Assembly: GCA_964357395.1 (NCBI GenBank)
Contig: CAYHLC010000001.1
Span: 119,599 to 183,598 of the forward strand
Length of the DNA stretch: 64,000 nucleotides
Direction of reading: 5' to 3'
Source of the DNA: an uncultured Candidatus Saccharibacteria bacterium
GTDB taxonomy: Bacteria > Patescibacteriota > Minisyncoccia > Phycocordibacterales > Phycocordibacteraceae
Shown: piece by piece, positions 13,404 through 57,566 of the stretch
Numbering within the stretch: the first letter of the stretch is position 1
How the letters are laid out: every line of letters begins with the position of its first letter
The notes under the pieces: model-generated
What the model saw: the letters and a program-made list of their open reading frames with translations, nothing else
The model's database searches: none
What the model was told of the DNA's origin: nothing
Program-made: the position numbers and the translations under genes

Positions 13404-13404
13404 G

Positions 13405-13764: not shown

Positions 13765-13781
13765 GGCATACTAGGGGAGCC

Positions 13782-13853: not shown

Positions 13854-13879
13854 CATAGTTTCGGGTTATAATAGTGGAC

Positions 13880-14364: not shown

Positions 14365-14441
14365 GCCGGGATAGCTCAGTTAGTTAGAGCATTCCCCTGA
14401 AGAGGGAAGGGTCGTCAGTGCAAGTCTGACTCCCGGCACCA
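14365..14441 (+). tRNA. tRNA-Phe (anticodon GAA), CCA encoded
   Basis: Acceptor GCCGGGA/TCCCGGC, D-arm GCTC-AGTTAGTTA-GAGC, anticodon stem TTCCC/GGGAA, loop CTGAAGA, T-loop GTGCAAG, ACCA end. Confidence 0.9.
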
Positions 14442-15538: not shown

Positions 15539-15542
15539 ACGA

Positions 15543-16268
15543 TTAGTTTAGAGTAATGCGTTCCCACCACGCAGGTGGGCGGAGGAGCCTGATGCGCTCG
15601 AGTGCAAGCAGGATACTAATGATGCCAACCCATACTCCAAGGAATACGGTCAGCACGGTGCCTGCTCCCGTTGTAATTATAAGGAAATTAAAGAGTGCGT
15701 GCAATGAAGTAGCAAGGATAAGTCCTATCCCAATGTAGGTAATCTTTTCCGAGCGAGTACGAAAGTAGGTGAATCCGAGTGCTGCGCCAACGACAGCGGA
15801 GCCGAGTACGTGGATCAGCGTCGCCCCAATGAAGCGCATGTTGGCAGTGATGGCTCCTTCGAGCGCGGCGTGTTCGAAAAACGGTGTAATGAGGAACAGA
15901 GTGTTCTCGAGTGCAGCAAATCCGAGCGCGACGGTGATCATATAGATGACCATGTCCATCGGCTCGTCGACCGCCCTGTTGCGCAGCACCAAGAGCCACG
16001 CGAGGCCGAACTTAGCAACCTCCTCTATGAGTGCCCAGATCGCGAGGAGCCCGAACCCAAGGGGGAGCATGTCGCTTGCCACTTTCTGGAAGGGCAGCAC
16101 GACAGCAACCGCGAGCATGCCGGTGAGGAATGCAAAGAGGAGCCGCATCCGAGGCTCTGGATGCTCCCAGTCCTCGAATAGCCAAAAGCCGAGCCATATC
16201 AACACAGGCACCAGGCCGAGCATCCCTGCGCCAAGCGCGGCGTATGCGGTCGCTAAGAGGTTAGACAC
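15543..16268 (-). CDS. PrsW-family intramembrane protease
   Basis: Conserved motifs ALIEEVAKF (EExxK), FAALENTLF (FxxxE), HALFN plus 7 TM helices. Confidence 0.75.
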   Translation of the reverse strand: MSNLLATAYAALGAGMLGLVPVLIWLGFWLFEDWEHPEPRMRLLFAFLTGMLAVAVVLPFQKVASDMLPLGFGLLAIWALIEEVAKFGLAWLLVLRNRAVDEPMDMVIYMITVALGFAALENTLFLITPFFEHAALEGAITANMRFIGATLIHVLGSAVVGAALGFTYFRTRSEKITYIGIGLILATSLHALFNFLIITTGAGTVLTVFLGVWVGIISILLALERIRLLRPPAWWERITLN

Positions 16269-16447
16269 CCAATTATTGTATCGCGATTATCGGGGCCACC
16301 AGTGTTGCTTGTCGTGCACCTGCCTTATATGTTTCTCATAGTCATGTTGTGAAATGCCCGACCAGTCACATCCTGGGTGGCTGCACATGATAAGTGTCTC
16401 CTCGTTACATATTCTCTCCATACTTTAAGATTATCGCCAGTAAGTAA

Positions 16448-16474
16448 TAAAAATGCCCCTTGTCGGGGCTTTTG
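16448..16474 (-). terminator. rho-independent terminator downstream of valS (bidirectional hairpin)
   Basis: GCCCC-TTGTC-GGGGC with T-run on plus strand and A-run upstream (T-run when read on minus strand). Confidence 0.6.
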
Positions 16475-16590
16475 CGTTTCTGTGCGGAACATCGACGCTC
16501 ACCCCAAGGAATGGGCTATGACGACCACGACAGACGATGATCCGAGGACCATAGACACATGGTACACGCGCATATCTGCGTGTCAATCGT

Positions 16591-26955: not shown

Positions 26956-27023
26956 AGGTTTTGCTCCGTGACGAACTGTTCGATTCTAGCATTTCGGGGC
27001 CAAAATGCTATATTTCCCACTGA

Positions 27024-27095
27024 GGCCCTATCGTCTAACGGTTAGGACACCAGCTTTTCAAGCTGAGAACCCGGGTTCGACTCCCGGTAGGGTCA
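27024..27095 (+). tRNA. tRNA-Glu (anticodon TTC)
   Basis: Acceptor GGCCCTA/TAGGGTC, D-arm GTCT-AACGGTTA-GGAC, anticodon loop TTTTCAA, T-arm CCGGG-TTCGACT-CCCGG. Confidence 0.8.
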
Positions 27096-27211
27096 TGCAG
27101 ACAAACCAATCCCATCGCGGTGGAATAATCATGCAAATACTGCCTGGCATTACCTCCCCTCATATAGTTGAGCTACTATTAAGAAAGAGGTTACCTTGGG
27201 TGATCTGTCGT

Positions 27212-27240
27212 TTGAGTGGCGTCCCTCAGCGACATATAAT
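27212..27240 (+). promoter_or_regulatory. canonical sigma70-type promoter TTGAGT-N17-TATAAT for the 801-aa island gene
   Basis: -35 27212-27217, -10 27235-27240, ATG at 27252 (near-leaderless). Confidence 0.55.
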
Positions 27241-27251
27241 GTACGCAGCAT

Positions 27252-29657
27252 ATGGATTTATCGCTCCTAAAGGTCAAGATAAAACAACTAATCGGAAAGG
27301 TCGGAACGATTCTTAAACTCAATGCCTTAAATAACAACAGGCTTGATATAGAGATAACAAAGGAAAAGATTGAGGCAAAGATAGAGGCTGACTCTATTAT
27401 TGGACAAATCGGCCAGCTTAATCAGACCCACACAGAAATTGGGAGTATTAGTGTGGTTTTACAGGGCGATCAGTTACCTGAAGATATTAAGCAGTTGCTT
27501 GGCGTTGCACAACCCGAAGCTCCACTTCTTCCGGCCTCTCCTGAATCAACAGGCGGTGACGTTCCAGTTCCAGGTAACGCAAGAGCAAAGAAGCTTAAGG
27601 TCTTGCTAGAGAATTTCGTTAGCGAGCATAATGAAGACCAAACCTTTCTTCTTGGAGTTGGACAACTCCTATTTTTTTACAGGCATCGCTCAAACATAGA
27701 TTTTTCTGAAGCAGAACTTATTTTGTTGCTTCGCTCTTCGCTCAAGCACGGCTTTCCTTTTTGGTACTGGTCGTTTCTTTATCGTGAAAAATTCAGTAAT
27801 GTAATTCCTCTAATAAAAGAGAGCTACAAAACGAATGACGTAAAGATCCGTATCGAACTAGTTCGTGTTCTAACAAGATTTACTGAAACTGCTGAGGAGC
27901 TATGTGCTCTTGCGGAAACAGAAAAGAATGAAGAGATTCTTGGCGCTATGGTTGCCGCATTGTTTGAGGGGAAAAACGAAGACCACGCGCAACGTGTTAT
28001 TTCCAATGCAATCTCCCGTCGGTTAGTACCTAGGGTTGAGCTCGATCGGATTAAGCTGCTTAGTGCGGAACTGGGCGCGAGTGAAAAAAGATTTCTAAGA
28101 CAGATTGTTATTGACGGATGGCCTGAGGAAAAAGTATTTGCGTTGAATTTGCTTAGCGTCTCTCCTTCGCCCGATGACCTTCATGTGATTGAAAATGTAA
28201 TTGATAATTTGCGATATCCGAAAGCTGTAGTTAGTGCACTACATTGTGTTTCTCGCATTGGCAGAACAGGCAAAATTGAAGTGATTAAAAAGCTGATAGA
28301 TGAGACAAGATCTGAAGAGATATTCATGCAGGCTTTGGAGGTACTTGCTCTACTTAAGGAAAAGAGCGCGTTCCCAGCCCTTTTTGACTTAGTAAAAAAA
28401 CCGGAAAGCGTTCATTGGCGGCTGACTGATTTAAATACTTGGACCTACGGCAGGAAGCTTGATGAAGCGGCCGTAGGCACATTTGATAAAAGTCATTACG
28501 AGTTGGTTGTAAAGGAGATTCTTTCAAAAAAGATTTGGGATGAAAACTGGGGCCTCTATGCATGGAGACCCCTGCACTTCCTTAAGTCTATAGAAGACCC
28601 CGAGGTGCGCTCTTTAATAGAGGTCGAAACCCGATTAAACGAAATGCCAGAATGGCGCGAAGTAGTTGAGGGTAGTAGGGGGGATCGAGAGATTGAGATA
28701 AGTGACGCTTCATCCTTGGTGGCTAAAGTTGGTACTTCAGATTTCGCTTTATCTGAACGATCCTTTAAGGCTTTATGGAAGCTCATTCCTTCATCAGAGG
28801 CTTTGGATTACCAAGAATATATTGAGAACTTGAGGATGGACCTGGCTGAAAGGTTAGTCGAGATTCGTAAGGATGAAACACTGCCACCTGAACAAAAAAA
28901 CTTATTGAAGAATGACTTGGACTACTTCCTTGGAGATAACACGCTTGCTTTTGGAGACCTGAGAACTGCTGGAAGTGTCTCACGTGGCAAAAAAAGGGAT
29001 GATGAAAAGAGTAAATTGGATAGACTGATAGAAGATATAAGTAAATTTGATTCTATTGAGAGCAGCTTCGTGGCTTTTGTTCTGACAAGCCAGAATCAGA
29101 GAACGTATGATTTCTTGATCACTCAGATCGGAAGACCTTTCGAGAAATTGTATTCCACTCTATCTGCGAAGTGGGGTGAGGTAGATAAGACACAGCTTAA
29201 ACCATTACTTGATAGCATAGTGAACAACAACCCCAACATCCTCATTAAATTGCGAGCTATTGAAGCGGGTTTAAGAATCGGAATATTTGACCGAGAGGAA
29301 GCACGGCTTACGGTTTTGGATGCACTTATGCCTGTTCGAGAGAAGCTCAAAAAGGAAGGTCGCGTGAATGAGAATAGCTTTATAACGCAGATTGCCTACA
29401 ACTCATGCATAAATACTTTGGCGGAAATTGGAAATCCAAATGATCTGCACTTCATTGAAGAGTCAGCTAACAGAGAACTAATAGTCTTTAGGAGCTACGC
29501 AAACTTTTCTGATATTCATAGCATTGAGGCGATTGAAAAGCTTCTAAATGTAATAGAGCTCACTACAGATGAAAAGGACATAAAATACGCACGTTTGGCC
29601 CTTGATAGTCTTGATTACAGATGGTCAGCAAAGGTGCTGGGGTTTGAGGCAAGTTAG
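27252..29657 (+). CDS. large alpha-helical HEAT/PBS-lyase-like repeat protein (801 aa) on an AT-rich island
   Basis: Track ORF; nucleotide composition ~40% GC versus ~58% flanks. HEAT-like repeat units (VSALHCVSRIGRTGKIEVIKKLID, QALEVLALLKEKSAFPALFDLV, CINTLAEIGNPNDLHFIEE, AIEAGLRIGIF). No enzymatic motif recognised. Confidence 0.7.
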   Translation: MDLSLLKVKIKQLIGKVGTILKLNALNNNRLDIEITKEKIEAKIEADSIIGQIGQLNQTHTEIGSISVVLQGDQLPEDIKQLLGVAQPEAPLLPASPESTGGDVPVPGNARAKKLKVLLENFVSEHNEDQTFLLGVGQLLFFYRHRSNIDFSEAELILLLRSSLKHGFPFWYWSFLYREKFSNVIPLIKESYKTNDVKIRIELVRVLTRFTETAEELCALAETEKNEEILGAMVAALFEGKNEDHAQRVISNAISRRLVPRVELDRIKLLSAELGASEKRFLRQIVIDGWPEEKVFALNLLSVSPSPDDLHVIENVIDNLRYPKAVVSALHCVSRIGRTGKIEVIKKLIDETRSEEIFMQALEVLALLKEKSAFPALFDLVKKPESVHWRLTDLNTWTYGRKLDEAAVGTFDKSHYELVVKEILSKKIWDENWGLYAWRPLHFLKSIEDPEVRSLIEVETRLNEMPEWREVVEGSRGDREIEISDASSLVAKVGTSDFALSERSFKALWKLIPSSEALDYQEYIENLRMDLAERLVEIRKDETLPPEQKNLLKNDLDYFLGDNTLAFGDLRTAGSVSRGKKRDDEKSKLDRLIEDISKFDSIESSFVAFVLTSQNQRTYDFLITQIGRPFEKLYSTLSAKWGEVDKTQLKPLLDSIVNNNPNILIKLRAIEAGLRIGIFDREEARLTVLDALMPVREKLKKEGRVNENSFITQIAYNSCINTLAEIGNPNDLHFIEESANRELIVFRSYANFSDIHSIEAIEKLLNVIELTTDEKDIKYARLALDSLDYRWSAKVLGFEAS

Positions 29658-29686
29658 TGGGGAATGGTGTCAGATACTATGTGTAA

Positions 29687-29980
29687 ATGAGAAGAGAGTT
29701 TCGCTTCAGTGCGAAGGTACAGGTATATCCAGGCCCGGGAGGGTGGAGGGTGGTGGCTTTGCCAAAGCTTGCGTCGGTGCGGATAGGGGCGCGGCGGGGG
29801 AGGAGGAAGAAGAGTTGGAACTTCTTTAATGTATCCACCACCATCGGCAAGACGACATGGACTAGCAGCCTCTGGCCGAAGCAGAAGGAGGGCGTGTATC
29901 TCATCGTCATCAAGAAGCCCGTACTAAAGAAGGAGGGGATTATGGACGGCGACAAGGTCAGCGTAACGATCACCTACTAG
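29687..29980 (+). CDS. DUF1905 domain protein
   Basis: YPGPGGWRVVALPK...TTIGKTTWTSSLWPKQKEGVYLIVIKKPVLKKEGIMDGDKVSVTI matches DUF1905. Confidence 0.75.
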   Translation: MRREFRFSAKVQVYPGPGGWRVVALPKLASVRIGARRGRRKKSWNFFNVSTTIGKTTWTSSLWPKQKEGVYLIVIKKPVLKKEGIMDGDKVSVTITY

Positions 29981-30000
29981 CCGTTTGCTACACTGATAGT

Positions 30001-30162
30001 ATGGACAAAATAAAGATAGAGAATCATACGTTCGGCTTCGGAATCTGGGTTATCGGATGGCTCTTTACTATCGGATACCTCAAGCTCGCATTTTGGAACG
30101 GAGTACTCGCAGTTATCGTCTGGCCGTACTTCCTCGGCGTCTCGTTTAGTTCGGTACTGTGA
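30001..30162 (+). CDS. small two-TM membrane protein (53 aa), hypothetical
   Basis: Own translation: MDKIKIENHTFGFGIWVIGWLFTIGYLKLAFWNGVLAVIVWPYFLGVSFSSVL. Stop overlaps the GTG start of the next gene (ctGTGAag); ATG 6 nt after TACACT. Confidence 0.4.
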   Translation: MDKIKIENHTFGFGIWVIGWLFTIGYLKLAFWNGVLAVIVWPYFLGVSFSSVL

Positions 30163-30866
30163 AGCTGCTACTCACATCCAGCGGATTCATTGGGAGCACC
30201 TTGGAAAAGGACTTTTGGGAGCTCGTCGGCGACCGCAAGAACCTAAAGGTGGCAATCATTCCTAATGCTACCGATCCTATTGAGTGGGTTGCCGAAAAGG
30301 AGGGCGACCCGGTAAGTGCATATGTAGCGAGGCTGACACGCGGAAATGATGTGAACTATGGAAAAGGGAAGGACTATGACTACTTCAAAAGCAAAGGCTG
30401 CGAGGTGGTCATTGTCGACCTGAAGGAGGATTCCGCAGAGGTGAGGAGAAAGCTCGAGAGTGTCGACATAATCGATGTGTGGGGAGGCGACGGTAACTGG
30501 CTACTCGATTGGGCAAAGAACGCGAAGTTGGACACGTACCTCAAAGAGATATTGGACAAGGGTGTGGTGTATGTCGGCGCGAGCGCGGGGAGTTGTCTAC
30601 TCACGCCAGACATTGGCCTCGGTTGGTGGACTCCGGAATGGAAATCGGATCATATAGGACTAGGAGTCGTTGATTTTACAATCGCCCCTCATCAAAAGGA
30701 AAGTGAGCTGGCAGAGAAAGTGCAAAAATATACCGAGCAGAGAAAGCAACTGCAGACAATAATCGATTTTCCTTGGAAGATATATCTACTCCAGGACGAC
30801 CAAGCGATTAAGGTTGATGGCGATACAGTTGAGCATATTGGGGAAGGGGAACGAAGGTCGATCTAA
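30159..30866 (+). CDS. peptidase S51 / class-I glutamine amidotransferase-like (dipeptidase E-like)
   Basis: Track ORF (GTG start); VAIIPNATDP, GASAGSCLL nucleophile elbow, His downstream. Confidence 0.7.
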   Translation: MKLLLTSSGFIGSTLEKDFWELVGDRKNLKVAIIPNATDPIEWVAEKEGDPVSAYVARLTRGNDVNYGKGKDYDYFKSKGCEVVIVDLKEDSAEVRRKLESVDIIDVWGGDGNWLLDWAKNAKLDTYLKEILDKGVVYVGASAGSCLLTPDIGLGWWTPEWKSDHIGLGVVDFTIAPHQKESELAEKVQKYTEQRKQLQTIIDFPWKIYLLQDDQAIKVDGDTVEHIGEGERRSI

Positions 30867-30904
30867 GCTGAAGTAGCAGCTGCGAGCGATGATAGGATGT
30901 ACTC

Positions 30905-32938
30905 ATGATCAGTCAGCAGCTCTTGGAGCATGCACGCGAGCAACTCGCCGCTGGCGTGTCGCCCGAAGCGCTCGAGCAAGAGCTACTGAAGCATGGTTGG
31001 GCAGCAGATGGTGTTAAGGAGGCAATCACGGCTGCGTCGAACTCGACGATCATAACTCCGCGTATCACGCCACTCCCGGCGCACGCTGCGGTGCCTCAGA
31101 TGCCCGCAATGACGGGTGGGCGGGGTGGCGAGTGGATGCTACTTACCGGCATTGCGGTAGGAATTGGCGCGCTTATGTATTGGGGCCTCAGTATGGTCGT
31201 ACCGCCGGAGCTATCGCTCTTTACGCTATTCGAGCCAGAGGCACAGGGTATGTGGTTTTACTTCCTTATCCCGGGTGTTGTTATTGGCCTACTTGCGCTC
31301 GGCGCGAGCTCCGTGTGGGGTGTGCGAGTCATCTGGGCTGAGGGTAAGCCGATACACGGGTTCCTGCTCGGAGTGTCGGTGTACCTCCTGCTCCTCTTTG
31401 GAATAGTAGAGGCAGCGCAATACGCCGCAGCGCAGTATGCAAACACACTTCCTGAAGACGGACCTTTTGTTGTTGGACTCATGTTCTCTAGCTCGTTTCT
31501 GTACTCGGCGCAGATCTTTTATGGCCTCCTCGTCATACTGATGCTGGTGCTGATTGTTGCCTCGCGTCGAAGGCAGCGCGAGCCGCTAAAAAAGCGCGCG
31601 CCGTGGGTGGTGTATGCACGCGGAGCTATTATCGCTGCTGGTGTAGTACTAACGCTGTACGTGTTCGGTGCAGCAGCGCCGGTAGCTCTCATAACTGGAG
31701 AGCAGTGGGTGTGCAATGCCGTGTACCCAAAGCAGATTAAGACGAGGTGCTTCCTAACCAACACTGCAACCCTAAGCGAGACCTCTGCACCATCTGGCGA
31801 ATTTGTTATCGAGAAGAGTGGCTACGCAGAGATCAAGGACCTGCACGATATTGGAGGCAAGCTGGCATACGCGTTCGAGAACGATGACGGAACGTCCGGC
31901 GTTGTGTACGACGGCAAGGTGGTGAGTGGCGCGTATAGCAAAGTAGGAATACTGCCTATCGAGGACCTGGGCGGCAAGCTGGCATACGAAGCGATAAAAG
32001 GCGATAAGACGATAATAGTCTACGACGGCGACGAGTACGGACTGGAGTACGACAGAGCACATAGCCCTACCCTAGTTGGAGGCAAGCTGGCGTTCCTCGC
32101 GCAGAAGGGGACAGTGCGCCCCGACATTAAGCAGGTAGTGGTGTGGGACGGCAAGGAGTATGGCACCGAGTACGCGGGCACAGGCAACATTATGGATATC
32201 GACGGCCAGCTGGGATATCAGGGGGGTACGCTCAATAATCAGTATCTTGTTGTAGGAGATACGAAGTACGGACCGTACCAGTTCATCAGCTGGACCAAGT
32301 ACGAGGGTGGGCACACAGTGTCGAAGGTGAGGAAGAACGATGAGCAGCTGTACCTCGTCGACGGAGTGGAGATAGGCAATACGGACTACGACTACCTCAC
32401 CGACATGTACGCATTTGTTGATGGCAAGTTTGCGTTCGCTGGGGCAAGGAACAAAGAGCTGTTTGTTGTGTACGACGGCAAGGAGGTAGGAGTCGGAAGC
32501 GGGTCATCAGAGGTCGGGCCATTCCGCATTAACAACAAGCTCGCATACATCGACGTAAATGTCGACGGGACAGCGCAGCTCTTCGTCGACGGCGTCGCGA
32601 CGGGGCCGGTCTTCGAGGACCGAGTTAACAATGTTGCCGTTTCAGAGCAGGGCAAGGTGGCAATACAAACAGAGAGCGAGACCAAGGAGATGGCGGTGTA
32701 TATCGATGGCAAGGAGGTGTACCGCGGCAAGGGCGGCAACCCGTTCGGCTTCTTCGGCGAGCGGCTGTTGGTGTGGGTCAAGGAGGACGGGCTCGACGGA
32801 CTTTGGATCGACGGCAAGGTGGTTGGTAAGGGCTTCTTCGGCTTTAGTTATATCGAACTCGTGAATGGGAGGTTCGTCATAGTGGGGAGTGTCCGCGTGG
32901 GTGACAAGATAGAGAGGTCGCTCCTTATAGAGCAATAA
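30905..32938 (+). CDS. polytopic membrane protein with ~9 tandem ~35-aa beta-repeats (WG/KLAY-type)
   Basis: N-terminal helical domain, 5-6 TM, then repeats of form GGKLAY.a..dG...vVYDGKEyG.EYD. Confidence 0.6.
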   Translation: MISQQLLEHAREQLAAGVSPEALEQELLKHGWAADGVKEAITAASNSTIITPRITPLPAHAAVPQMPAMTGGRGGEWMLLTGIAVGIGALMYWGLSMVVPPELSLFTLFEPEAQGMWFYFLIPGVVIGLLALGASSVWGVRVIWAEGKPIHGFLLGVSVYLLLLFGIVEAAQYAAAQYANTLPEDGPFVVGLMFSSSFLYSAQIFYGLLVILMLVLIVASRRRQREPLKKRAPWVVYARGAIIAAGVVLTLYVFGAAAPVALITGEQWVCNAVYPKQIKTRCFLTNTATLSETSAPSGEFVIEKSGYAEIKDLHDIGGKLAYAFENDDGTSGVVYDGKVVSGAYSKVGILPIEDLGGKLAYEAIKGDKTIIVYDGDEYGLEYDRAHSPTLVGGKLAFLAQKGTVRPDIKQVVVWDGKEYGTEYAGTGNIMDIDGQLGYQGGTLNNQYLVVGDTKYGPYQFISWTKYEGGHTVSKVRKNDEQLYLVDGVEIGNTDYDYLTDMYAFVDGKFAFAGARNKELFVVYDGKEVGVGSGSSEVGPFRINNKLAYIDVNVDGTAQLFVDGVATGPVFEDRVNNVAVSEQGKVAIQTESETKEMAVYIDGKEVYRGKGGNPFGFFGERLLVWVKEDGLDGLWIDGKVVGKGFFGFSYIELVNGRFVIVGSVRVGDKIERSLLIEQ

Positions 32939-32972
32939 CCGCTTCATTGACGGAACATCTGAAGTTGGTAGT

Positions 32973-33155
32973 ATGTCCAATAATATGGCTTGGACGATGC
33001 ATGAAGGTGTGCTCCACGGGCCCCACCAGGAGGCAAATCTTGTGTACGAGCTATGGTGCATGGCGGACTGTGGCTATACAGCCGCAGATGGCCCCGAGCC
33101 GGACGAGTGCCCGCGCTGTGGCGAGGGCGACGTGGTGCGTCGTGTTAAGCAGTAG
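32973..33155 (+). CDS. small zinc-ribbon protein (60 aa)
   Basis: CMADCGYTAADGPEPDECPRCGEG, two CxxC-type pairs. Confidence 0.4.
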   Translation: MSNNMAWTMHEGVLHGPHQEANLVYELWCMADCGYTAADGPEPDECPRCGEGDVVRRVKQ

Positions 33156-33197
33156 TCCTGTCATGGCAGGCCTTTGCGAGCGTCCTAAAGATAGGAC

Positions 33198-33971
33198 ATG
33201 AAAGCGCTTTCCATTGTTGGCGGAATAGCACTACTCCTCTTTATTGCGGGAGTCTTGGCATACACAGTGTCGGATCCGAACACTGGTGGGCCGGTATCAA
33301 ACACAGATGATGCGGCTATTCGCAAAGTCGTAATGGAGTTCGGACTGAAGATGAAAGAGGTATCACTGCTTGCTACAACTGCTGATCGCGAGGCAGCAAT
33401 GATGGAGCATTATGGCCTGTACGTCACACCGGAGTTGAGGCTGGCATGGGCACCGGAGGGAGCTGAGGCGCTCGGTAGGTACACATCGAGCCCGTGGCCC
33501 GACAGCATCAACATTGTCGAGGTACGTCAGCAGGGCGATGGGTATAGGGTCGAAGGCAATGTGCTGGAGGTCGCTAACTCGGCCGAAGGCAGTGAGCCCG
33601 AGCCTGTGGCCACGTATCCGGTGAGCCTCCGGATGGAGAAGCGGGGCGAGGCATGGATGATTGCAGAGGCTATTAAGGGCGCGTACAGCGAGCTCCCGCA
33701 CCGGCAAGTAGTAATCGGCTTTTGGGAGTGCCTGCCGAGCGGGGATACGAGCGGGCCGCAGACGCTGGAGTGCGCGCTCGGAATTGCTATCGATCAGTCG
33801 GACGGACATATGGCCATTGATACCTCGCTCATGTCTACATACCCAGCAGACTTTCCGACTGGAACCAAGGTGCGGGTGAGTGGCGTAGTGACCCCTGCTA
33901 ATCAGCTGAGTAGCGAGCAGAAGTACGACATCGACGGCATCATCCGCGCCACGACGATTGAGAAGATCTAG
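33198..33971 (+). CDS. hypothetical membrane-anchored protein
   Basis: Track ORF; N-terminal TM, no recognised domain. Confidence 0.5.
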   Translation: MKALSIVGGIALLLFIAGVLAYTVSDPNTGGPVSNTDDAAIRKVVMEFGLKMKEVSLLATTADREAAMMEHYGLYVTPELRLAWAPEGAEALGRYTSSPWPDSINIVEVRQQGDGYRVEGNVLEVANSAEGSEPEPVATYPVSLRMEKRGEAWMIAEAIKGAYSELPHRQVVIGFWECLPSGDTSGPQTLECALGIAIDQSDGHMAIDTSLMSTYPADFPTGTKVRVSGVVTPANQLSSEQKYDIDGIIRATTIEKI

Positions 33972-34009
33972 CTCATGACGCCACTGGCGGTTTGATACAC
34001 TGTAGGGGT

Positions 34010-34435
34010 ATGGAAATAAACTATATCGCCATAGTGGTTGCGGCAGTAGCGCAATTTATTGTAGGAGGGATCTGGTACATGCCACTTTTTGGCAAGATGT
34101 GGGGAGAGATGCACGGGTTTGATAAGGTCGCGCCCGAAGTACAAAAGCAGATGAGCAAGGACATGATGCCACTCCTTGTGGTGCAGGCATTCTTGGCACT
34201 CGTGACGAGCGCAGTCTTTGGCATCCTCGTTGCGTACATGACACTTCCGCAGGACTGGACCCTATGGTGCCTCGCAGCACTTTATTGGCTCGGCTTTGCG
34301 GCTCCATCCCAAGTCAGCTTAGTTATCTTTGGTGGCACAGAGCCGAAGTGGGTGGTTAAGAAGACGTTGATCGCAATCGGAGGCTCGCTGCTCTGCTTCC
34401 TCGCGATGGCAGCAGTCTTCGTACTCCTTGGCTAA
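34010..34435 (+). CDS. DUF1761 family membrane protein
   Basis: Track ORF 33992 trimmed to MEINYIAIVVAAVAQFIVGGIWYMPLFGKMWG..., the typical DUF1761 N-terminus. Confidence 0.65.
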   Translation: MEINYIAIVVAAVAQFIVGGIWYMPLFGKMWGEMHGFDKVAPEVQKQMSKDMMPLLVVQAFLALVTSAVFGILVAYMTLPQDWTLWCLAALYWLGFAAPSQVSLVIFGGTEPKWVVKKTLIAIGGSLLCFLAMAAVFVLLG

Positions 34436-35094
34436 TGGGTCTGCGGTGCCGAAGGAGGCAATACTGAGTGCGATTTGATCAGGTCGAATAGGTACACACC
34501 GCTTGCTAGGAAGAGCAGTGCGGTATGCACGGCCATCCCGCCAGCAAAAGATGACTCGAAGTAGAGGATCGGGAGTGACGCAAGATTGCCAATTATCGCT
34601 AGGCTTCCGGCCACTATTAGGAACGAGGGGAGCAGTAGTGCAGTAGCTAAAGGCATGCGAGCGCCCCAAACAAGCAATCCACATGCAGCAGTGCTACACA
34701 GAAAGCTGAGGAGCGTTACTGGCGAGGATGTGAGCGGGACCCACCGCCATGCATCCGTAGTGGGGAGTGATGGTATCAGTCCAAAATAGTATGCGATCTC
34801 AGAAGACATTCCCGCAAGGATTGAGCCTACAATTAATATTGCCGATAGTGCGCTAATAGCCCAGAACCATATGCGTATACTGCCGGATGTTTTATGTGTT
34901 GTTACAGCAATTTTGGCTAGCAATAGTGTTGCGCCACTAAGTATAAAGAGTATTGCGGTAGGAAGTTTCATGCTCGTCTCGAGGGGGCCAAAGTGGGTGA
35001 CGGTCGGCATGTACCAGATCCAACTAATAGCAACCAGTAGTCCTACCGCGCTTACCATCCAAGGCACGGTTGCGAGGAATCTAACGTGGTTCAT
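34432..35094 (-). CDS. hypothetical polytopic membrane protein
   Basis: Track ORF; ~6 TM; 4-nt convergent overlap with previous gene. Confidence 0.5.
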   Translation of the reverse strand: MNHVRFLATVPWMVSAVGLLVAISWIWYMPTVTHFGPLETSMKLPTAILFILSGATLLLAKIAVTTHKTSGSIRIWFWAISALSAILIVGSILAGMSSEIAYYFGLIPSLPTTDAWRWVPLTSSPVTLLSFLCSTAACGLLVWGARMPLATALLLPSFLIVAGSLAIIGNLASLPILYFESSFAGGMAVHTALLFLASGVYLFDLIKSHSVLPPSAPQTH

Positions 35095-51771: not shown

Positions 51772-52056
51772 ATGGCAAGAATGTTTGAGGGGCTAGGCAA
51801 GTACCTAGACAATGCCGAGAAGGAAGGGAAGATAACACCACAAGAGCGGTGGCGCTTGGGTGTGTTGTATACCGCAGGCATTGGCTTGGTGCTGACTTCG
51901 ATAGTCGGGCATGTTGTAGAGATGGGCCTTAAGGACGCTGAGTATACGGATCTGATCCCGCACATGTATATCGACCTAGCGGGCCTTGCGGGCGCGGTGA
52001 CCTGGACAGGTGCAGCACTCTACTTTATTGCCGCACTTTCAAAGAAGAAGAATTAG
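51772..52056 (+). CDS. small two-TM membrane protein, paralog A
   Basis: MARMFEGLGKYLDNAEKEGKITPQERWRLGVLYTAGIGLVLTS...; paralogous to the next gene. Confidence 0.5.
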   Translation: MARMFEGLGKYLDNAEKEGKITPQERWRLGVLYTAGIGLVLTSIVGHVVEMGLKDAEYTDLIPHMYIDLAGLAGAVTWTGAALYFIAALSKKKN

Positions 52057-52102
52057 CTCCTGCCGCCTTCACCGCGTTCTAGTTGACAGTGGCAGCGCGT
52101 CG

Positions 52103-52408
52103 ATGTATGGTTCCTGCATGAAAGGACCATTCGAATACCTCAACAGCCACCTCCAGAAGACTGAGGACGCTGGCCTCATTACCCCAAGTGAGCGAGGTAT
52201 TATTGTGTGGGGCGCTATCCTCGGCATAACTGCCGGCTTAACAGGTTCAGTAGGGGCTGCAGATAAGTTCTTTAAGCTCGGCATTTTCGATAAAGCAACT
52301 GATCAAACACTCTCAGAGATTGCTATTGCTGGGTACTCAGTCGCCGCACTCTCAATGATTTCCGCCGTGTATTTTATCCTCCGTAATAATGGTGGTCAGA
52401 ATAAGTAG
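52103..52408 (+). CDS. small two-TM membrane protein, paralog B
   Basis: MYGSCMKGPFEYLNSHLQKTEDAGLITPSERGIIVWGAILGITAGLTGS... aligns with paralog A (F..L......G.ITP.ER...V...A.G..L); start 52103 or 52118. Confidence 0.45.
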   Translation: MYGSCMKGPFEYLNSHLQKTEDAGLITPSERGIIVWGAILGITAGLTGSVGAADKFFKLGIFDKATDQTLSEIAIAGYSVAALSMISAVYFILRNNGGQNK

Positions 52409-52431
52409 CCGAGTTCGCTACTAGGGCAACT

Positions 52432-52758
52432 ATGGCAGAGGGAATTATTGACAATACGGCGTATTCCGAGGCGGCACGCATTGAGGTGTCCAGCAATATA
52501 TACATGCGGCAGGTGGCAGTCGCAGTGGGACTCACGTTGCTTGCAGATTTCATTCTCTATACCTGGAGCATGGGTGGGGCAGTTGGTGCAGTGGGCAAGG
52601 AAGCTGCGCTAGAGGCGTTCTATTTTCGGGCGGCTGTTGTTAACGCAGCTATTCTGATCCCCACAACGATCGTAGCGGGTGCGGGCCACCGCATGCGAAA
52701 GCGTGGAATCATGGGGCCGGCAGAAAAGCCTGAGAAAAAGAACGAGGACGAAGGCTAG
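52432..52758 (+). CDS. hypothetical membrane protein (108 aa)
   Basis: Track ORF; ATG 7 nt after TACTAG. Confidence 0.45.
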   Translation: MAEGIIDNTAYSEAARIEVSSNIYMRQVAVAVGLTLLADFILYTWSMGGAVGAVGKEAALEAFYFRAAVVNAAILIPTTIVAGAGHRMRKRGIMGPAEKPEKKNEDEG

Positions 52759-52800
52759 TGGAATTTGCTTTTTGCTAAACTTTGTGTCATTATATTAGAT

Positions 52801-53184
52801 ATGGGTGGCTTTGTATCAGGCACTGAGCGTACGAAAAAACGAGTAAAGCGGGAGACTCGACACACACTGAAGAGTAGAACTGTGCTCTTGTGTGGCGCTC
52901 TCGTAGCGCTTGGGTTCCCTGGCTATCTACTGTATGTAGACGGCCCTGCGGTCGCTTGGCTCCTCTCTACGTCTGCGATGGAAAAGTTTTTTATTCTTGA
53001 CGTTAATGTCCAGTTCGGATTGTTGGTGGCGGCCGGATTTGGGGCTCTTGCCATTCTCAGTCGAATTCTCGGCCCGCGCACCAGCTCGAGTCGCTACTAC
53101 GAAACGAGTACGCCCGAGAAGGCTCCAGATACGGAAGATGATGGGGTGCTCGAGCCGCCGCATTTCGTCAGGTGGTACGACTAG
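52801..53184 (+). CDS. hypothetical membrane protein
   Basis: Track ORF 52765 trimmed to Met 52801. Confidence 0.4.
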   Translation: MGGFVSGTERTKKRVKRETRHTLKSRTVLLCGALVALGFPGYLLYVDGPAVAWLLSTSAMEKFFILDVNVQFGLLVAAGFGALAILSRILGPRTSSSRYYETSTPEKAPDTEDDGVLEPPHFVRWYD

Positions 53185-53222: not shown

Positions 53223-53759
53223 ATGGGGATGTTACTCGCGGACCCGCGTGAGGTCTTAAAGTTCGTGACGCTGCGCCCCGGCTACCGGGTTGCAGACTTT
53301 GGTGCGGGCTCTGGCGCGTACACATCGGTACTCCTCGAGCGTATTGGTACGGAGGGGAAGGTGTACGCCTTGGACGCGCTGCCGCAGTCCTTGGAGCGGA
53401 TACGCCACAGCGCTGAGGGGAGCGGCAAGAAGTGTATGACCTTGAACTGCGAGTTCGAGTCGGCGCTGCCAATGAAGGAAAACTTGTTGGACCTCGCCAT
53501 TCTTGCTAACACGCTACACCATGTCGACCCGCACGCGCGGCAGAGCTTCGTGTCGGAGTTGGCGCGCGTCGTTGTGCCAGGTGGTGAGGTCCTGATTGTT
53601 GATTGGGCAGGGTCGTTCAATAACATGGGGCCGGCGCGCTCGATGATCGTCACTCCCGTAGATGCGGTACGACTCTTCCGCGCATCAGGTTTCAACACTG
53701 GCGACATGCTCCCCGCGGGTACACACCAGTACGCATTCGTAGCCACTTTGCCAAGGTAG
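53223..53759 (+). CDS. class I SAM-dependent methyltransferase
   Basis: Motif I VADFGAGSGAYT, motif post-I, LIVDW. Confidence 0.7.
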   Translation: MGMLLADPREVLKFVTLRPGYRVADFGAGSGAYTSVLLERIGTEGKVYALDALPQSLERIRHSAEGSGKKCMTLNCEFESALPMKENLLDLAILANTLHHVDPHARQSFVSELARVVVPGGEVLIVDWAGSFNNMGPARSMIVTPVDAVRLFRASGFNTGDMLPAGTHQYAFVATLPR

Positions 53760-53779: not shown

Positions 53780-55069
53780 ATGAAACCATTTCAGGCGGCA
53801 GTACTCGGAATCTTCCTCTTCCTCGCCTTGGTTGGCGTCTTTGTGTTTGCCACCTTTACCTCCTCACGCCAGGATGCTATCGGTGAGGTGGTCATCTGGG
53901 GCTCCTTGCCGCAGGACATTGTGGACGACCTCCTTACTATTGTGCGCGGAACACGAGATGATTTTAATGGAGTGACGTATCGCGATTTTACTAAGGAAGA
54001 GCTAATGCCGACCCTGGTGCAGGCTATCGCCTCGGGCCGCGGGCCGGACCTCATACTCTTCCCGTCCTCTGCGTTTGTTAAGGATGGCGACAAGCTGCAA
54101 CCTATTTCCTACAGCACCGTGCCCCGCAGGACCTTTCAAGACACCTTTGTCGAGGCAGGCGAGATATTCCTCACCGCAGAGGGCATCGCTGCGCTTCCCA
54201 TGACTATCGATCCAACGGTTATGTACTGGAACCGCACCATGTTTGCAAACGCAAGTATTGCGCGTCCACCAAAGTATTGGGACGAACTTGCAACACAGGC
54301 GCCAAAGTTGACTAAGAAGCAGCCGAACGGATCTCTCATAACAAGCGCGGCTCCGCTCGGCAGCTGGGACAACGCGACTCATCCTAAGGAAATATTGGTA
54401 ACGCTGCTACGCCAGCTCGGCACTACGGTTATTACTCGCGATGAGGAGGGGCTGTATCGCAATGTACTAGCGGGTACGAATGATGCGGAGGTGTCACCTG
54501 CAGAGTCTGCCATCCACTACCTGGTAGACTTTGCAGACCCCGTTAAGCCGAACTATAGCTGGAACCGATCGCAGAAGAACGCCAGGGACGCGTTCCTCGC
54601 TGGCACTCTCGCGCTCTACTTCGGGCCAGCGTCCGAGCTGCTCTCCATCCGTGAGTCGAACCCGAACCTTAACTTTGATGTCGCACCTATGCCGATAGCC
54701 CGTGGGGGCGGCGAGGGAGTCTATGCCGACGTGGAGGCACTCGCGGTGCCGCGAGGCGCGGCGAACCCTGGTGGAGCGACGGCAGTCGCACTCATCCTCG
54801 TATCAGCGCCGATATCGACCGAACTTGCCAAGGCGACACGCCTCCCATCACCCCGCCGCGATGTGCAGCTGGACGCATCCGCGGATCAATACTTAACCAC
54901 GTTCCGCGCATCGGCGCTCAAGGCGTTCGCATTCATGGACCCAGACCCGAGTGCCTCGAGTGCGATATTTAGTCGTATGATCGATAATGTTGCCTCGGGC
55001 CGCTCGCGTATATCCGAGGCCATCCGAGCTGCGGATGAAGAGTTGCGAGTCCTTATTCGGGTGCAATAA
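53780..55069 (+). CDS. extracellular solute-binding protein (family 1-like), orphan
   Basis: N-terminal TM/signal, ~400-aa periplasmic-binding-fold pattern; no permease or ATPase gene adjacent. Confidence 0.5.
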   Translation: MKPFQAAVLGIFLFLALVGVFVFATFTSSRQDAIGEVVIWGSLPQDIVDDLLTIVRGTRDDFNGVTYRDFTKEELMPTLVQAIASGRGPDLILFPSSAFVKDGDKLQPISYSTVPRRTFQDTFVEAGEIFLTAEGIAALPMTIDPTVMYWNRTMFANASIARPPKYWDELATQAPKLTKKQPNGSLITSAAPLGSWDNATHPKEILVTLLRQLGTTVITRDEEGLYRNVLAGTNDAEVSPAESAIHYLVDFADPVKPNYSWNRSQKNARDAFLAGTLALYFGPASELLSIRESNPNLNFDVAPMPIARGGGEGVYADVEALAVPRGAANPGGATAVALILVSAPISTELAKATRLPSPRRDVQLDASADQYLTTFRASALKAFAFMDPDPSASSAIFSRMIDNVASGRSRISEAIRAADEELRVLIRVQ

Positions 55070-55076: not shown

Positions 55077-55400
55077 ATGATCAAAAGAGCATTTGCACTC
55101 ATTGTGCCCACACTCCTCCTTTCGCCTATCGTGGCGCTCGCTGCACTTACGAACCCGCTGCAGACTGCGAGTCTCTCACAATTCCTCACGATGCTCCTGC
55201 GACTCGTTGCAGAGATAGCCTCGCCGATCATCGTCCTTATGATTGTGTACATCGGCTTCCTGTTCATTACCGCGCAGGGCAATCCGGATAAGCTGAAGAA
55301 GGCCAGAGAGTACTTCCTCTGGGCTATGATCGGCGCCTTGCTCGTCCTTGGCGCGTACGCACTCTCGCTCGCTATCGAAGGGACCGTAAGCCAACTCTAG
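55077..55400 (+). CDS. VirB2/TrbC-like (T4SS-pilin-like) small protein, paralog 1
   Basis: Signal-like N-terminus MIKRAFALIVPTLLLSPIVALAA, helix LLRLVAEIASPIIVLMIVYIGFLFITAQ, loop GNPDKLKKAREY, helix FLWAMIGALLVLGAYALSLAI. Confidence 0.55.
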   Translation: MIKRAFALIVPTLLLSPIVALAALTNPLQTASLSQFLTMLLRLVAEIASPIIVLMIVYIGFLFITAQGNPDKLKKAREYFLWAMIGALLVLGAYALSLAIEGTVSQL

Positions 55401-55401
55401 T

Positions 55402-55671
55402 ATGCCGCAAGTAGGACAAAAGCCAGAGAATCTGACAGAGCTCATACAGATGCTCACGAGCATCGTAGGAGCGTTCATCCCCGTTGCGGTCGGGTTCTGC
55501 GTTGTTGCTTTTGCATGGGGGCTGATGACCGTCCTGATGGATACGGACAACGCGGATAAGCGCAAAGAGGGCTCGAAACGTATGATCTGGAGTGTCCTCG
55601 CGCTCTTCGTCGTCCTCTCCCTTGGCGGCATCATTGAGATTCTGAAGGCCACACTACTTGGTGAACAATAA
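55402..55671 (+). CDS. VirB2/TrbC-like small protein, paralog 2
   Basis: LTELIQMLTSIVGAFIPVAVGFCVVAFAWGLMTVLM - DTDNADKRKEGSKR - MIWSVLALFVVLSLGGIIEIL. Confidence 0.55.
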   Translation: MPQVGQKPENLTELIQMLTSIVGAFIPVAVGFCVVAFAWGLMTVLMDTDNADKRKEGSKRMIWSVLALFVVLSLGGIIEILKATLLGEQ

Positions 55672-55767
55672 GAGCTACGGCTATCCACACGGTACTCGCT
55701 TGGGGGTCTTGAGCGGGTAGCAGCAGGGTACACTGTAAGAAGTTAATAATATATTGATACTAATTAC

Positions 55768-56109
55768 ATGAACACGCTTTTGAAAGTTGGCTCTATTGCA
55801 TTCCTCGCGGCCCTCCCGGTTGCGGCGTTTGCAGATACATTAATCGATGTGGCAAACACTATCGGAGATATCGTCGGCATCGTAACGCCTATCGTCGTTG
55901 CTATCGCCCTCATCCTCTTCTTCTGGAACCTCGCTATGTACTTCATAGGCAAGGAGGAGGACAAGAAGAAGGCCGTCTCCGGCATGATCTACGGCGTCCT
56001 GATCCTCTTCGTCATGGTATCGATCTGGGGTATCGTCAACGTCTTGCAAGACACCTTTAACGTCGGTGGTACGCAGACGGTCACACCGCCTAACGTACAA
56101 GGCATCTAA
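55768..56109 (+). CDS. VirB2/TrbC-like small protein, paralog 3 (clear signal peptide)
   Basis: MNTLLKVGSIAFLAALPVAAFA | DTLIDVANTIGDIVGIVTPIVVAIALILFFWNLAMYFI - GKEEDKKKAVSG - MIYGVLILFVMVSIWGIVNVL; ATG 6 nt after GATACT. Confidence 0.6.
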   Translation: MNTLLKVGSIAFLAALPVAAFADTLIDVANTIGDIVGIVTPIVVAIALILFFWNLAMYFIGKEEDKKKAVSGMIYGVLILFVMVSIWGIVNVLQDTFNVGGTQTVTPPNVQGI

Positions 56110-56114
56110 GTACT

Positions 56115-56312
56115 GTGGAGGATAGGAAGAGCATACTCGAGACCGTGAAGCCGAGTGACGCTCTAGTGCGCCTCGGCTCTCGGCAATCTGGATTCCGTAT
56201 GTGGGCGGTGGTCATAGCCGTGCTCTTCCTCTTTGGTGTTGTGATAGTTGCTGCAAGCATCTTTAACTCAACTGGTGCATCTAATGAGCCAGTACCATCA
56301 GTAAGTATCTAG
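56115..56312 (+). CDS. small TM protein (65 aa, GTG start)
   Basis: Track ORF; one TM (WAVVIAVLFLFGVVIVAASIF). Confidence 0.3.
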   Translation: MEDRKSILETVKPSDALVRLGSRQSGFRMWAVVIAVLFLFGVVIVAASIFNSTGASNEPVPSVSI

Positions 56313-56313
56313 T

Positions 56314-56559
56314 ATGGACGCACTCACCGGATTCGTCGACAACTTAGTGCGGCTCATCATCCAGCCGCTCGTCGTGCTGCTCCTCACTGCAGGCGTGGCG
56401 TACTTCATTTGGGGCGTTGGTACGTACCTATGGAAAGGGGAGAAGGGCGAGGATCGATCGAAGGCCGCGCAGAACATGCTCTGGGGCCTCATCGGCCTCG
56501 TCATCATGGTCGCTGTCGTTGGCCTCCTCGAAATCCTAACCTCCACCTTCGGGGTCTAG
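56314..56559 (+). CDS. VirB2/TrbC-like small protein, paralog 4
   Basis: LVRLIIQPLVVLLLTAGVAYFIWGVGTYLW - KGEKGEDRSKAAQN - MLWGLIGLVIMVAVVGLLEIL. Confidence 0.55.
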   Translation: MDALTGFVDNLVRLIIQPLVVLLLTAGVAYFIWGVGTYLWKGEKGEDRSKAAQNMLWGLIGLVIMVAVVGLLEILTSTFGV

Positions 56560-56593
56560 CCGAGGCGTGATACATTAAACCTGCTCCTCGCTC

Positions 56594-56677
56594 GGGCGAG
56601 TGGTGAAATTGGCAGACACGCCAGCCTTAGGAGCTGGTCCTCGCAAGAGGGTGGAGGTTCAAGTCCTCTCTCGCCCA
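56594..56677 (+). tRNA. tRNA-Leu (anticodon TAG), class II
   Basis: Acceptor GGGCGAG/CTCGCCC, anticodon stem CCAGC/GCTGG, loop CTTAGGA, long variable arm TCCTCGCAAGAGGGT, T-arm GGAGG-TTCAAGT-CCTCT. Confidence 0.9.
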
Positions 56678-56684
56678 CAGAATA

Positions 56685-56705
56685 AGGCCCAACTGGGCCT
56701 TTGTT
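56685..56705 (+). terminator. rho-independent terminator after tRNA-Leu
   Basis: AGGCCC-AACT-GGGCCT then TTGTT. Confidence 0.7.
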
Positions 56706-56769
56706 CATAGGTGCATAAAGTGCTTGCGGTGCCTCCTTGCCGGGTGTAGGATAGGCAGATACCACGTGC

Positions 56770-56798
56770 TTGACTATACTAGAACAGCATGGTATAAT
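56770..56798 (+). promoter_or_regulatory. promoter TTGACT-N17-TATAAT, start codon 6 nt downstream
   Basis: Canonical hexamers and spacing; ATG at 56805. Confidence 0.55.
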
Positions 56799-56804
56799 GC
56801 AAAT

Positions 56805-56993
56805 ATGTGTGGATACTTCATACACCCTGAGGAGGGTTTCACCCTAAAAGGGGGTCTTACTATTTTTGGCGCCGTTTTCTTGTTAGGGTGTATAGCTACG
56901 TACGTCCTTGTCGATAAGGATACTGTACCAAGCAAGTTGATCCTTGAAATTTTGGGCGGATCTTCCTCTAATGGGCCTACCTACGAAACCTAA
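56805..56993 (+). CDS. small TM protein (62 aa), hypothetical
   Basis: MCGYFIHPEEGFTLKGGLTIFGAVFLLGCIATYVLV...; lies in an AT-rich segment. Confidence 0.4.
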   Translation: MCGYFIHPEEGFTLKGGLTIFGAVFLLGCIATYVLVDKDTVPSKLILEILGGSSSNGPTYET

Positions 56994-57490
56994 CGAAATT
57001 ATATGGCAAGAGAGGATTCATACCGCCCCACACGAACTGAGTTTATCCTAATTGCAGCTATTCTCTTGTTGGTAGTTGCGGGTATCAATATTGCGCCAGG
57101 GGAAGGCGCGGCAATCGATGCGTCGGAAGGTAAGTTTACTCCAAAGAGCAATCCTGATTTATACCCTAATTAAATTGTGTGGCATTTGAAGGAGACCAAC
57201 ACAAGCCAGAGCCTAATTATCTCCTCAGAGGCGCGCTATTCATTTTTGCAGCTGTCTCGATATTTATAATGCTCGGCATATCCGGTCCTTCGGGCATTGA
57301 GCTTGAGTGAGAGCATACATCCTGCAGAAGCGGGGTTTTTGTTTTGAGGCCTTTAATTAATCTGTATATCTGTTAGTATTCTGACTGTCCCCGATGAGGG
57401 GGCGGAGTGAACTACTCGCGCCCATAAGCGAAGCTTTTGGGCGCTGCACTCGGACGCCATGAGTGCAAGCACTCGCGGCGTCACTCGTTT

Positions 57491-57566
57491 GCGCCCATAG
57501 CTCAGCTGGTAGAGCAACCGACTCTTAATCGGCAGGTCCTTGGTTCGAATCCAAGTGGGCGCACCA
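57491..57566 (+). tRNA. tRNA-Lys (anticodon CTT), CCA encoded
   Basis: Acceptor GCGCCCA/TGGGCGC, D-arm GCTC-AGCTGGTA-GAGC, anticodon loop CTCTTAA, T-loop TTCGAAT. Confidence 0.9.

Follow-up and report, generated by a model that had tools for sequence, protein, structure and literature searches.

Within the window, a 64,000-nt stretch of chromosomal DNA from an ultra-small groundwater bacterium of the Paceibacteria (Patescibacteria), we analyzed an array of small genes whose products resemble the VirB2/TrbC pilins of type IV secretion systems (T4SS). The same DNA is present in Hainich groundwater assemblies, and its proteins are identical to NCBI AAB955_02350-02370 ("Patescibacteria group bacterium"). 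Five tightly packed small genes lie within 55077-56559, all on the + strand, in the order P1, P2, P3, S65 and P4 (Table 1). Hydropathy analysis showed that P1 to P4 each contain two long hydrophobic stretches linked through a short, net-positive Gly/Lys/Asp/Glu loop. An N-terminal hydrophobic leader ending in A-x-A is present in P1 (VALA↓A) and P3 (AFA↓D) and is lacking in P2 and P4, and S65 contains one hydrophobic stretch (residues 24-55). An earlier reading of this DNA from its letters (hereafter the sequence-only reading) had given the coordinates and loop sequences of P1-P4, with which our open reading frame (ORF) calls and hydropathy profiles agreed, and had proposed a two-helix hairpin with an optional leader, a layout borne out by hydropathy and, for P1, by AlphaFold2. 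It had also described the four as consecutive paralogs. The four paralogs are present, and the conserved S65 between P3 and P4 had been overlooked: with tblastn, 8 related contigs showed a counterpart of S65 in the corresponding place, and inspection by eye of the 13 listed loci revealed a similar ORF of 67-80 amino acids (aa) there in 9. S65 belongs to the array.

The AlphaFold2 model of P1, built with 19 orthologs, consists of a leader helix and a hairpin (H33-65/H70-106) with a predicted local distance difference test score of ~90 over the hairpin, and P3 carries an invariant motif, FVMVSxWG. The guanine-plus-cytosine content (GC) at the third codon position of P1-P4 was 0.64-0.80, similar to that of gyrA and groEL, and the four are therefore native coding genes for which the + strand reading is the coding one. 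A 185-aa antisense ORF over P1 and P2 (55176-55733, - strand) was "conserved" in relatives; it is a by-product of the sense strand and not a gene.

BLASTP comparisons gave E=1e-11 for P2 and P3, E=5e-10 for P2 and P4, and E=9e-11 for P3 and P4, while P1 matched P2 and P4 at E ~1e-4. Identity from paralog to paralog was 19-33%, and an alignment of all four proteins was too divergent to serve as a query for scanning loci. When the ortholog profiles were compared by hhalign, the pairs P1/P4, P1/P2 and P3/P4 gave 96.6%, 96.1% and 99.6%, respectively (E=8e-25 for P3/P4). Judged by these comparisons, P1-P4 are true paralogs.

The curated cut-offs of the relevant families are 26.6 bits for Pfam PF18895 (T4SS_pilin), 27.9 bits for PF04956 (TrbC/VirB2) and 40 bits for NF045849. 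P1, P2 and P3 scored above the PF18895 cut-off, which upheld the assignment to a VirB2/TrbC-like pilin family made by the sequence-only reading; P4 scored below it, and the P4 orthologs in the related loci L023 and L024 do carry PF18895 matches. All of the P1 orthologs (19/19) matched PF18895. P1 (22.8 bits) and P3 (17.6 bits) fell below the PF04956 cut-off, and 15 of the 19 P1 orthologs matched this family at E<=1e-3, with a best value of 1e-7, so that the relationship to TrbC/VirB2 is real but distant. Among NCBIfam models, NF045849 (Mbov_0395) matched each of the four best, at 38.9 bits for P2, 26.8 for P4, 25.3 for P1 and 21.6 for P3, all of them under 40. Features of type IV pili were not found in P1-P4: no Pfam N_methyl or pilin family was matched, and the class III leader motif G↓F/M-T-L-x-E was absent. 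The helical hairpin is a generic shape, so that the case for membership in the family is built on sequence profiles and on the genes that accompany family members in other organisms. On this profile evidence P1-P4 belong to the VirB2/TrbC-like T4SS pilin family (PF18895), with P4 tied in by profile-profile comparison.

The family is very large: at E<=1e-10, a search with the P1 profile recovers 3,397 cluster representatives. Its members P0121, P0122, P0132, P0139, P0209 and P0221 are single chains of 455-820 aa in which 5-8 pilin hairpins follow one another, separated by linkers of ~25-40 residues, and they look like entire arrays joined in one chain; such chains bear on the question of whether the hairpins assemble side by side. 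P2 is named "ion transporter" by NCBI on a marginal match to Ion_trans (PF00520), which is likely a misannotation.

A translated P1 search of 72,556 plasmids returned one match, a gene on a Pontibacillus megaplasmid annotated as "Mbov_0395 family pilin-like conjugal transfer protein". The match is reciprocal and position-specific, with 34% identity to P1 over 70 aa, and the homolog scored 47 bits on PF18895. Downstream of it in the Pontibacillus cluster come another PF18895 gene, with a weaker match, and genes for a TrbL/VirB6-like protein, a PrgI/TraL (VirB3-like) protein, VirB4 (with P-loop_TraG, AAA_10 and DUF87 domains) and a large peptidoglycan hydrolase. From this context it follows that PF18895 is, in a Firmicute, part of a canonical single-membrane T4SS cluster, in which it already occurs as a tandem pair.

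Species-representative genomes scanned with a P1 ortholog profile yielded 11 loci (10 distinct genomes), a metagenome scan with a P3 profile yielded 80 further loci, and look-ups of more distant homologs added others, among them the complete 721-kb genome CP174359.1, whose array lies at 412-433 kb. The 757-kb JGI contig Ga0621872_00045 carries the array as well. The gene order gyrA, (variable small ORFs), methyltransferase, binding protein, P1, P2, P3, S65, P4, tRNAs and rbfA-infB was collinear in 15 species-level relatives and the same in most of 36 longer metagenome loci, and the succession from gyrA through the methyltransferase and binding protein to the array recurs in ~50 related genomes or metagenome contigs. 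Complete arrays contained 3 to 7 pilin genes, mostly 4. In the 15 relatives, median identity to the proteins of the window was 81% for GyrA, 58% for P1, 52% for both P3 and the binding protein, 49% for the methyltransferase, 48% for P4 and 35% for P2; P1 is thus the most conserved paralog, and also the most TrbC/VirB2-like, and P2 is the fastest-evolving. The build specific to each paralog (leader or none, tail or none, its own loop motif) is kept across species, and the putative A-x-A leaders of P1 and P3 are conserved among their orthologs. On this comparative evidence each paralog is a stable orthologous subunit, not a fast-varying cassette. No integrase, relaxase or flanking repeats were found at the array in the window, and a search of 2.9 million viral contigs returned no relatives. 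The array is a vertically inherited chromosomal operon in a non-mobile housekeeping setting.

The binding protein lies directly upstream of the first pilin gene in 46 of the 50 loci with upstream sequence in view, a count corrected by hand for three script false negatives; in the window the gap to P1 is 8 nt. The sequence-only reading had called this protein an orphan; its recurrence shows that it is no stray neighbour of the array. Its nearest solved relative is MBP1 (4r9f), and no permease adjoins it. The 4 loci that lack it belong to low-GC lineages, and a scan of the flanking ORFs in the longer three of them placed the array among housekeeping genes there too; low-GC relatives with an array and no binding protein include L052, L083 and L087. 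The methyltransferase gene, which the sequence-only reading had missed, precedes the gene for the binding protein in almost every related locus. We found no description in the literature of a constant link between a pilin array and a binding protein beside gyrA; it is the one feature of the locus for which this holds and is worth follow-up.

Table 1. Features of the pilin-like array and of its surroundings, in positions of the window.
Feature	Position	Strand	Remarks
P1	55077..55400	+	107 aa; leader-bearing; PF18895 32.8 bits; TrbC E=1e-4; AlphaFold2 hairpin
P2	55402..55671	+	89 aa; leaderless hairpin; PF18895 35.6 bits; NF045849 38.9 bits
P3	55768..56109	+	113 aa; leader (AFA↓D), conserved C-terminal tail; PF18895 29.3 bits
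S65	56115..56312	+	65 aa; GTG start; single helix; between P3 and P4; no family match
P4	56314..56559	+	81 aa; leaderless hairpin; PF18895 22.5 bits; hhalign to P3 profile 99.6%
Solute-binding protein	53780..55069	+	429 aa; membrane-anchored; sugar/oligosaccharide type; SBP_bac_1/8 E ~2e-21
S-adenosylmethionine (SAM)-dependent methyltransferase	53229..53759	+	176 aa as called; Pfam Methyltransf_25/11; gene call L001 3101-3631
Four small membrane ORFs	51772..53184	+	between gyrA and methyltransferase; species-specific
tRNA-Leu(tag)	56594..56678	+	ARAGORN, Rfam; after array in most relatives
Lineage-specific insert	56770..57344	+	promoter-like site, three tiny ORFs, terminator-like hairpin
Promoter-like TTGACT-17-TATAAT	56770-56798	+	11/12 positions match
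Tiny single-helix ORFs	56805-56993, 57003-57173, 57179-57310	+	third-position GC 0.40-0.48
Terminator-like hairpin	57319-57336 plus T run	+	
Hairpin (inverted repeat I5)	57418..57444	+	12 bp; not tRNA
tRNA-Lys(ctt)	57491..57566	+	ARAGORN, Rfam

Tandem arrays of this kind have been described. Among 3,035 Patescibacteria assemblies surveyed, VirB4 was found in 2,417, and in Paceibacteria it is usually encoded near dnaA; pilin genes were near virB4 in only 1,135 of 1,948 assemblies, so that ~40% have pilins away from virB4, and 441 VirB2 arrays of 2-11 genes with a mean identity of 25% were recorded in 383 assemblies (Quinonero-Coronel et al. 2025, PMC12102498). The array studied here shares with these the phylum, the families PF18895/PF04956, the arrangement of genes in tandem or with one gene interposed, an identity of ~25% and the lack of a relaxase. 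With four pilin genes, one interposed 65-aa gene and an identity of 19-33%, it falls under the definition used in that survey, which concentrated on the surroundings of virB4 and in which Microgenomatia and Saccharimonadia were the richest in arrays, whereas the present one is from Paceibacteria. It differs from the published arrays in that no VirB4-like gene was found within 10 kb and in its fixed position beside gyrA, the methyltransferase and the binding protein, a context that we did not find described. Since tandem Patescibacteria pilin arrays are published, the array is an instance of a described phenomenon and less novel than the sequence-only reading had assumed; divergent VirB2-like pilins in tandem and without a relaxase were already known from this phylum (PMC10633639, PMC12102498, PMC12857230).

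Ca. Southlakia epibionticum has an essential T4SS that resembles the conjugation systems of Gram-positive bacteria but comprises several pilins, themselves essential, and in which neither coupling nor relaxase proteins were recognisable (Wang et al. 2023, PMC10633639). Its locus in strain ML1, SEML1_0006-0019 (PMC10633639, PMC12857230), resembles ours, which we likened to it by description, in encoding several divergent VirB2-like pilins in a single-membrane epibiont. It differs in that its pilins lie inside the T4SS cluster and are essential, whereas the present ones lie apart from any machinery. The Patescibacteria systems are considered unique among single-membrane bacteria in their potential to make conjugative pili (2025 review, PMC12857230), and T4SS-pilin genes are among the highest-expressed genes of unknown function in the cultured, methanogen-parasitising Patescibacteria PMX.50 and PMX.108 (PMC10936435). 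The proteins Mbov_0395 and MMCAP2_0565 of Firmicute and Mycoplasma conjugative elements, represented by NF045849, are encoded on mobile elements beside an ATPase, unlike P1-P4, for which they are the best NCBIfam match below the cut-off. With VirB2 of the Agrobacterium T-pilus and TrbC of RP4 the likeness consists of a putative leader ahead of a pair of hydrophobic helices with a short basic loop, and P1 aligns to positions 12-94 of the 98 in PF04956; against this stand the sub-threshold score of P1, the lack of a structural match above noise and, in the present system, the lack of an outer membrane and of VirB5, VirB7, VirB9 and VirB10.

A large fraction of uncultured bacteria are Patescibacteria, which live attached to host cells. 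The T4SS of this group is unusual in having pilins, which are normally lacking in single-membrane bacteria, and it proved essential in the one species tested. We consider it probable that the operon supplies pilin-like subunits of a Patescibacteria-type T4SS, derived from the conjugation machinery of single-membrane bacteria and encoded elsewhere in the genome. For topology, leader cleavage, dependence on VirB4, filament formation and a role of the binding protein or methyltransferase, we infer the following. The hairpins would insert in the cell membrane so that the two ends face outward and the basic loop faces the cell interior; in P1 and P3, cleavage of the leader at A-x-A would come first. 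A VirB4/VirB6/VirB3 machine encoded elsewhere, in Paceibacteria usually near dnaA, would extract and stack the hairpins, giving rise to a short heteromeric pilus or conduit in contact with the host cell. In such a structure P1 would be the main building block (candidate major subunit), with P2, P3, P4 and S65 as putative fixed minor, adaptor or accessory subunits, and the co-transcribed binding protein possibly provides glycan recognition at the contact site. The description of the array as a self-contained module in the sequence-only reading was not supported, given the frequency of VirB4 and of pilins encoded away from it in the survey cited above (PMC12102498). Of 48 Paceibacteria metagenome-assembled genomes sampled from Table S1 of the same study, 41 have VirB4, and together the two sources set the literature prior for VirB4 in such a genome at ~80-85%.

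Several observations weigh against assigning the array to a T4SS. VirB4 in the source genome is an assumption: VirB4, VirD4, VirB6 and relaxase were not found in the window, in which no large or mid-size ORF matched a T4SS family in Pfam or NCBIfam and the ORFs were either housekeeping or without a family, and no secretion machinery, VirB4, VirB6 and VirD4 included, was seen in the 10 kb past its right end. With the Pontibacillus VirB4 as query, none was found within 10 kb in 96 loci (811 kb), even at E<=10, and neither VirB6 nor VirD4 was seen there; the VirB4 probe is a single Firmicute protein that a divergent VirB4 could escape, yet almost every large ORF in the flanks could be assigned to a housekeeping gene. 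Arrays beside virB4 were also sought through the distant pilin matches P0056, P0058, P0109 and P0119, all of which gave the gyrA/binding-protein synteny. P2 and P4 lack a leader peptide, and chains of 5-8 fused hairpins are no less compatible with an assembly embedded in the membrane than with a filament. The fold is non-discriminating, in that Foldseek found nothing significant for the P1 model in the PDB (best E=1.3, generic helical hairpins), and a sequence profile searched against the PDB gave chance matches only, to membrane helices of a G-protein-coupled receptor at E ~0.01. Finally, a pilus leaves the invariant link to the binding protein unexplained.

This link would be accounted for if the binding protein, the four hairpins and S65 (nine membrane helices) formed a membrane complex that, without a T4SS ATPase, captures or imports host-derived sugars or anchors the cell to host glycans, with the homology to pilins a matter of ancestry only. 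We regard such a module, the main rival reading, as unlikely. The constant place of the binding protein, the lack of VirB4 around the arrays, the leaderless P2 and P4 and the fused multi-hairpin polypeptides all agree with it, as do the fixed subunit order and stable orthologs expected of a stoichiometric complex, and the Pontibacillus homolog weakly matches DctQ, which is the small membrane subunit in a type of transporter that depends on a binding protein. We know, however, of no transporter that consists of two-helix hairpins, no ATPase or other energising component is adjacent, and the low-GC relatives noted above have arrays without the binding protein. Moreover, PF18895 occurs inside a canonical single-membrane T4SS cluster in Pontibacillus, P1 orthologs match TrbC/VirB2, and the pilins of Ca. 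S. epibionticum are encoded inside its T4SS cluster (PMC10633639). A broader form of the idea, in which a large Paceibacteria clade would possess a fixed five-subunit pilin-like module with a sugar-type binding protein that works independently of VirB4, as a new host-contact or uptake apparatus re-using VirB2-like hairpins as a membrane or filament scaffold, seems to us quite unlikely.

The low identity among the paralogs, close to the 25% mean of the survey (PMC12102498), and the variation in array size from 3 to 7 genes among relatives would also suit interchangeable variants of one pilin that serve surface variation or matching to host strains, as suggested for Bartonella and Anaplasma and proposed for Patescibacteria. 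Those Bartonella and Anaplasma arrays likewise consist of tandem divergent pilin genes and have been interpreted as a source of surface variation in a T4SS locus, in contrast to the stable orthologous subunits found here. Each paralog forms its own ortholog group at the same position in relatives with GyrA identities of 66-85% to the window, conservation of P1 exceeds that of the neighbouring binding protein and methyltransferase, and the differences in build (leader, tail) are conserved. Stable orthology and conserved builds argue for fixed, non-redundant subunits and thus make interchangeable variants improbable. That P1-P4 are ordinary small membrane proteins, matched to pilins by hydrophobic composition and not by homology, is in our view very improbable: the chance matches to receptor helices, the non-discriminating fold and the Ion_trans match of P2 point that way, but three proteins exceed the curated Pfam cut-off, loop and helix motifs are conserved, the P1 profile recruits a large family, and the T4SS-embedded Firmicute homolog is matched reciprocally and position by position. 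It is more improbable still that the array is the remnant of a conjugative element integrated next to tRNA genes, of which the tRNA genes directly downstream and the variable segment of lower GC might be taken as signs. The components of a plasmid or integrative and conjugative element (relaxase, coupling protein, VirB4, integrase) were not found, nor were repeats flanking the array; the housekeeping context is syntenic and identical in ~50 genomes, the codon composition is native, and none of the viral or mobile contigs searched carries a relative. The sequence-only reading had held that a canonical conjugation system does not explain the locus and that no secretion machinery was in view, and both statements stand, the latter for the window and the 10 kb past its right end, where a complete conjugative T4SS directly outside the window was looked for on the right side and not found.

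The locus leaves the current picture of Patescibacteria T4SS unchanged. The comparison reveals, across a broad Paceibacteria clade, a stable and ordered set of distinct pilin subunits located far from ATPase genes and beside a sugar-type binding protein, and it raises the questions of which of the paralogs forms the structure, whether this includes the binding protein, and whether these pilins need VirB4.

Downstream of the array, ARAGORN and Rfam both confirmed the tRNA-Leu and tRNA-Lys genes reported by the sequence-only reading. The spacer between them is 812 bp long and has a GC of 47% versus 54% for the window, in agreement with the AT-rich segment described earlier, and the promoter-like site reported there is present as well. 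Its three tiny ORFs exist as ORFs, and support for their being coding is lacking: they do not carry the third-position GC signal of the genome, gene callers disagree on them, and neither a protein- or DNA-level counterpart in the 18 related loci compared nor a Pfam match was found. As a structured RNA, the spacer transcript had no Rfam match and a fold z of -0.7; the 111 nt upstream of tRNA-Lys (57380-57490) form three stable hairpins (-55.8 kcal/mol, z=-4.3). What had been described as a degenerate mini-copy of tRNA-Lys is a 12-bp hairpin that has ~9 nt (GCGCCCATA) in common with the 5' end of tRNA-Lys and that neither ARAGORN nor Infernal (E<=1) called as a tRNA. In relatives the spacing of the two tRNA genes ranges from 40 to ~1,300 nt and their orientation varies. 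The array and the segment do not co-vary, as the DNA and ORFs of the segment are missing in the relatives. The tRNA-bracketed segment is a variable insertion hot spot, unrelated to the module. A GIY-YIG gene adjoins the tRNAs in one relative.

Upstream, the sequence-only reading had noted two further small membrane proteins; four such ORFs are present in the interval between gyrA and the methyltransferase. They had no counterpart in the related loci compared and lie outside the conserved module. Two of them, U1 and U2 (51772-52408), are paralogs with 32% identity over 85 aa (E=2e-5, small database).

In the window at large, the identified genes include groEL, lepA, murJ, a class I tRNA synthetase gene, tsaD, ftsZ, ftsA, rpsA, gyrA and infB. 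A low-GC stretch at 27000-35000 (43-45% at 27-30 kb) begins directly after tRNA-Glu (27024-27095), with a strongly positive GC skew over 28-35 kb, and may be an acquired island. Its 27-33 kb part encodes an 801-aa ORF with a weak HEAT-repeat match and a 677-aa membrane protein without a family; both were considered as hidden T4SS parts and rejected, since Pfam and NCBIfam gave no support.

The 10 kb past the right end of the window encode an aminotransferase, clpB, miaA and ahpC. A 403-aa protein is also encoded there, ~13.5 kb downstream of the array (L005 2660-3871, - strand in that locus; ~70,050-71,261 in window numbering), in which an N-terminal PF18895-like hairpin (25.1 bits) and an SLT lytic transglycosylase domain (27.2 bits) are combined. 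This protein is predicted to provide a VirB1-type activity anchored by a pilin-like hairpin, and its gene, as a second one of T4SS type near the array, counts in favour of the T4SS reading. In the relative L010, a gene with a PF18895 match likewise follows clpB.

Among the relatives, L014, L015, L018, L019 and L021 are TPA bins labelled "uncultured Candidatus Saccharibacteria" that show the same synteny; GyrA of L014, L015 and L018 is 79-85% identical to that of the window, as in the loci labelled Paceibacterota, and these labels look unreliable. In the relative L012, where no tRNAs are found, the variable spot directly downstream of the array is occupied by an ORF of >2,200 aa (11512-18111) with SpvB, FG-GAP and RHS-repeat matches of the polymorphic-toxin type. 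In the low-GC relative L087, the pyruvate phosphate dikinase gene (10944-14603) is split by an intein with a LAGLIDADG domain.

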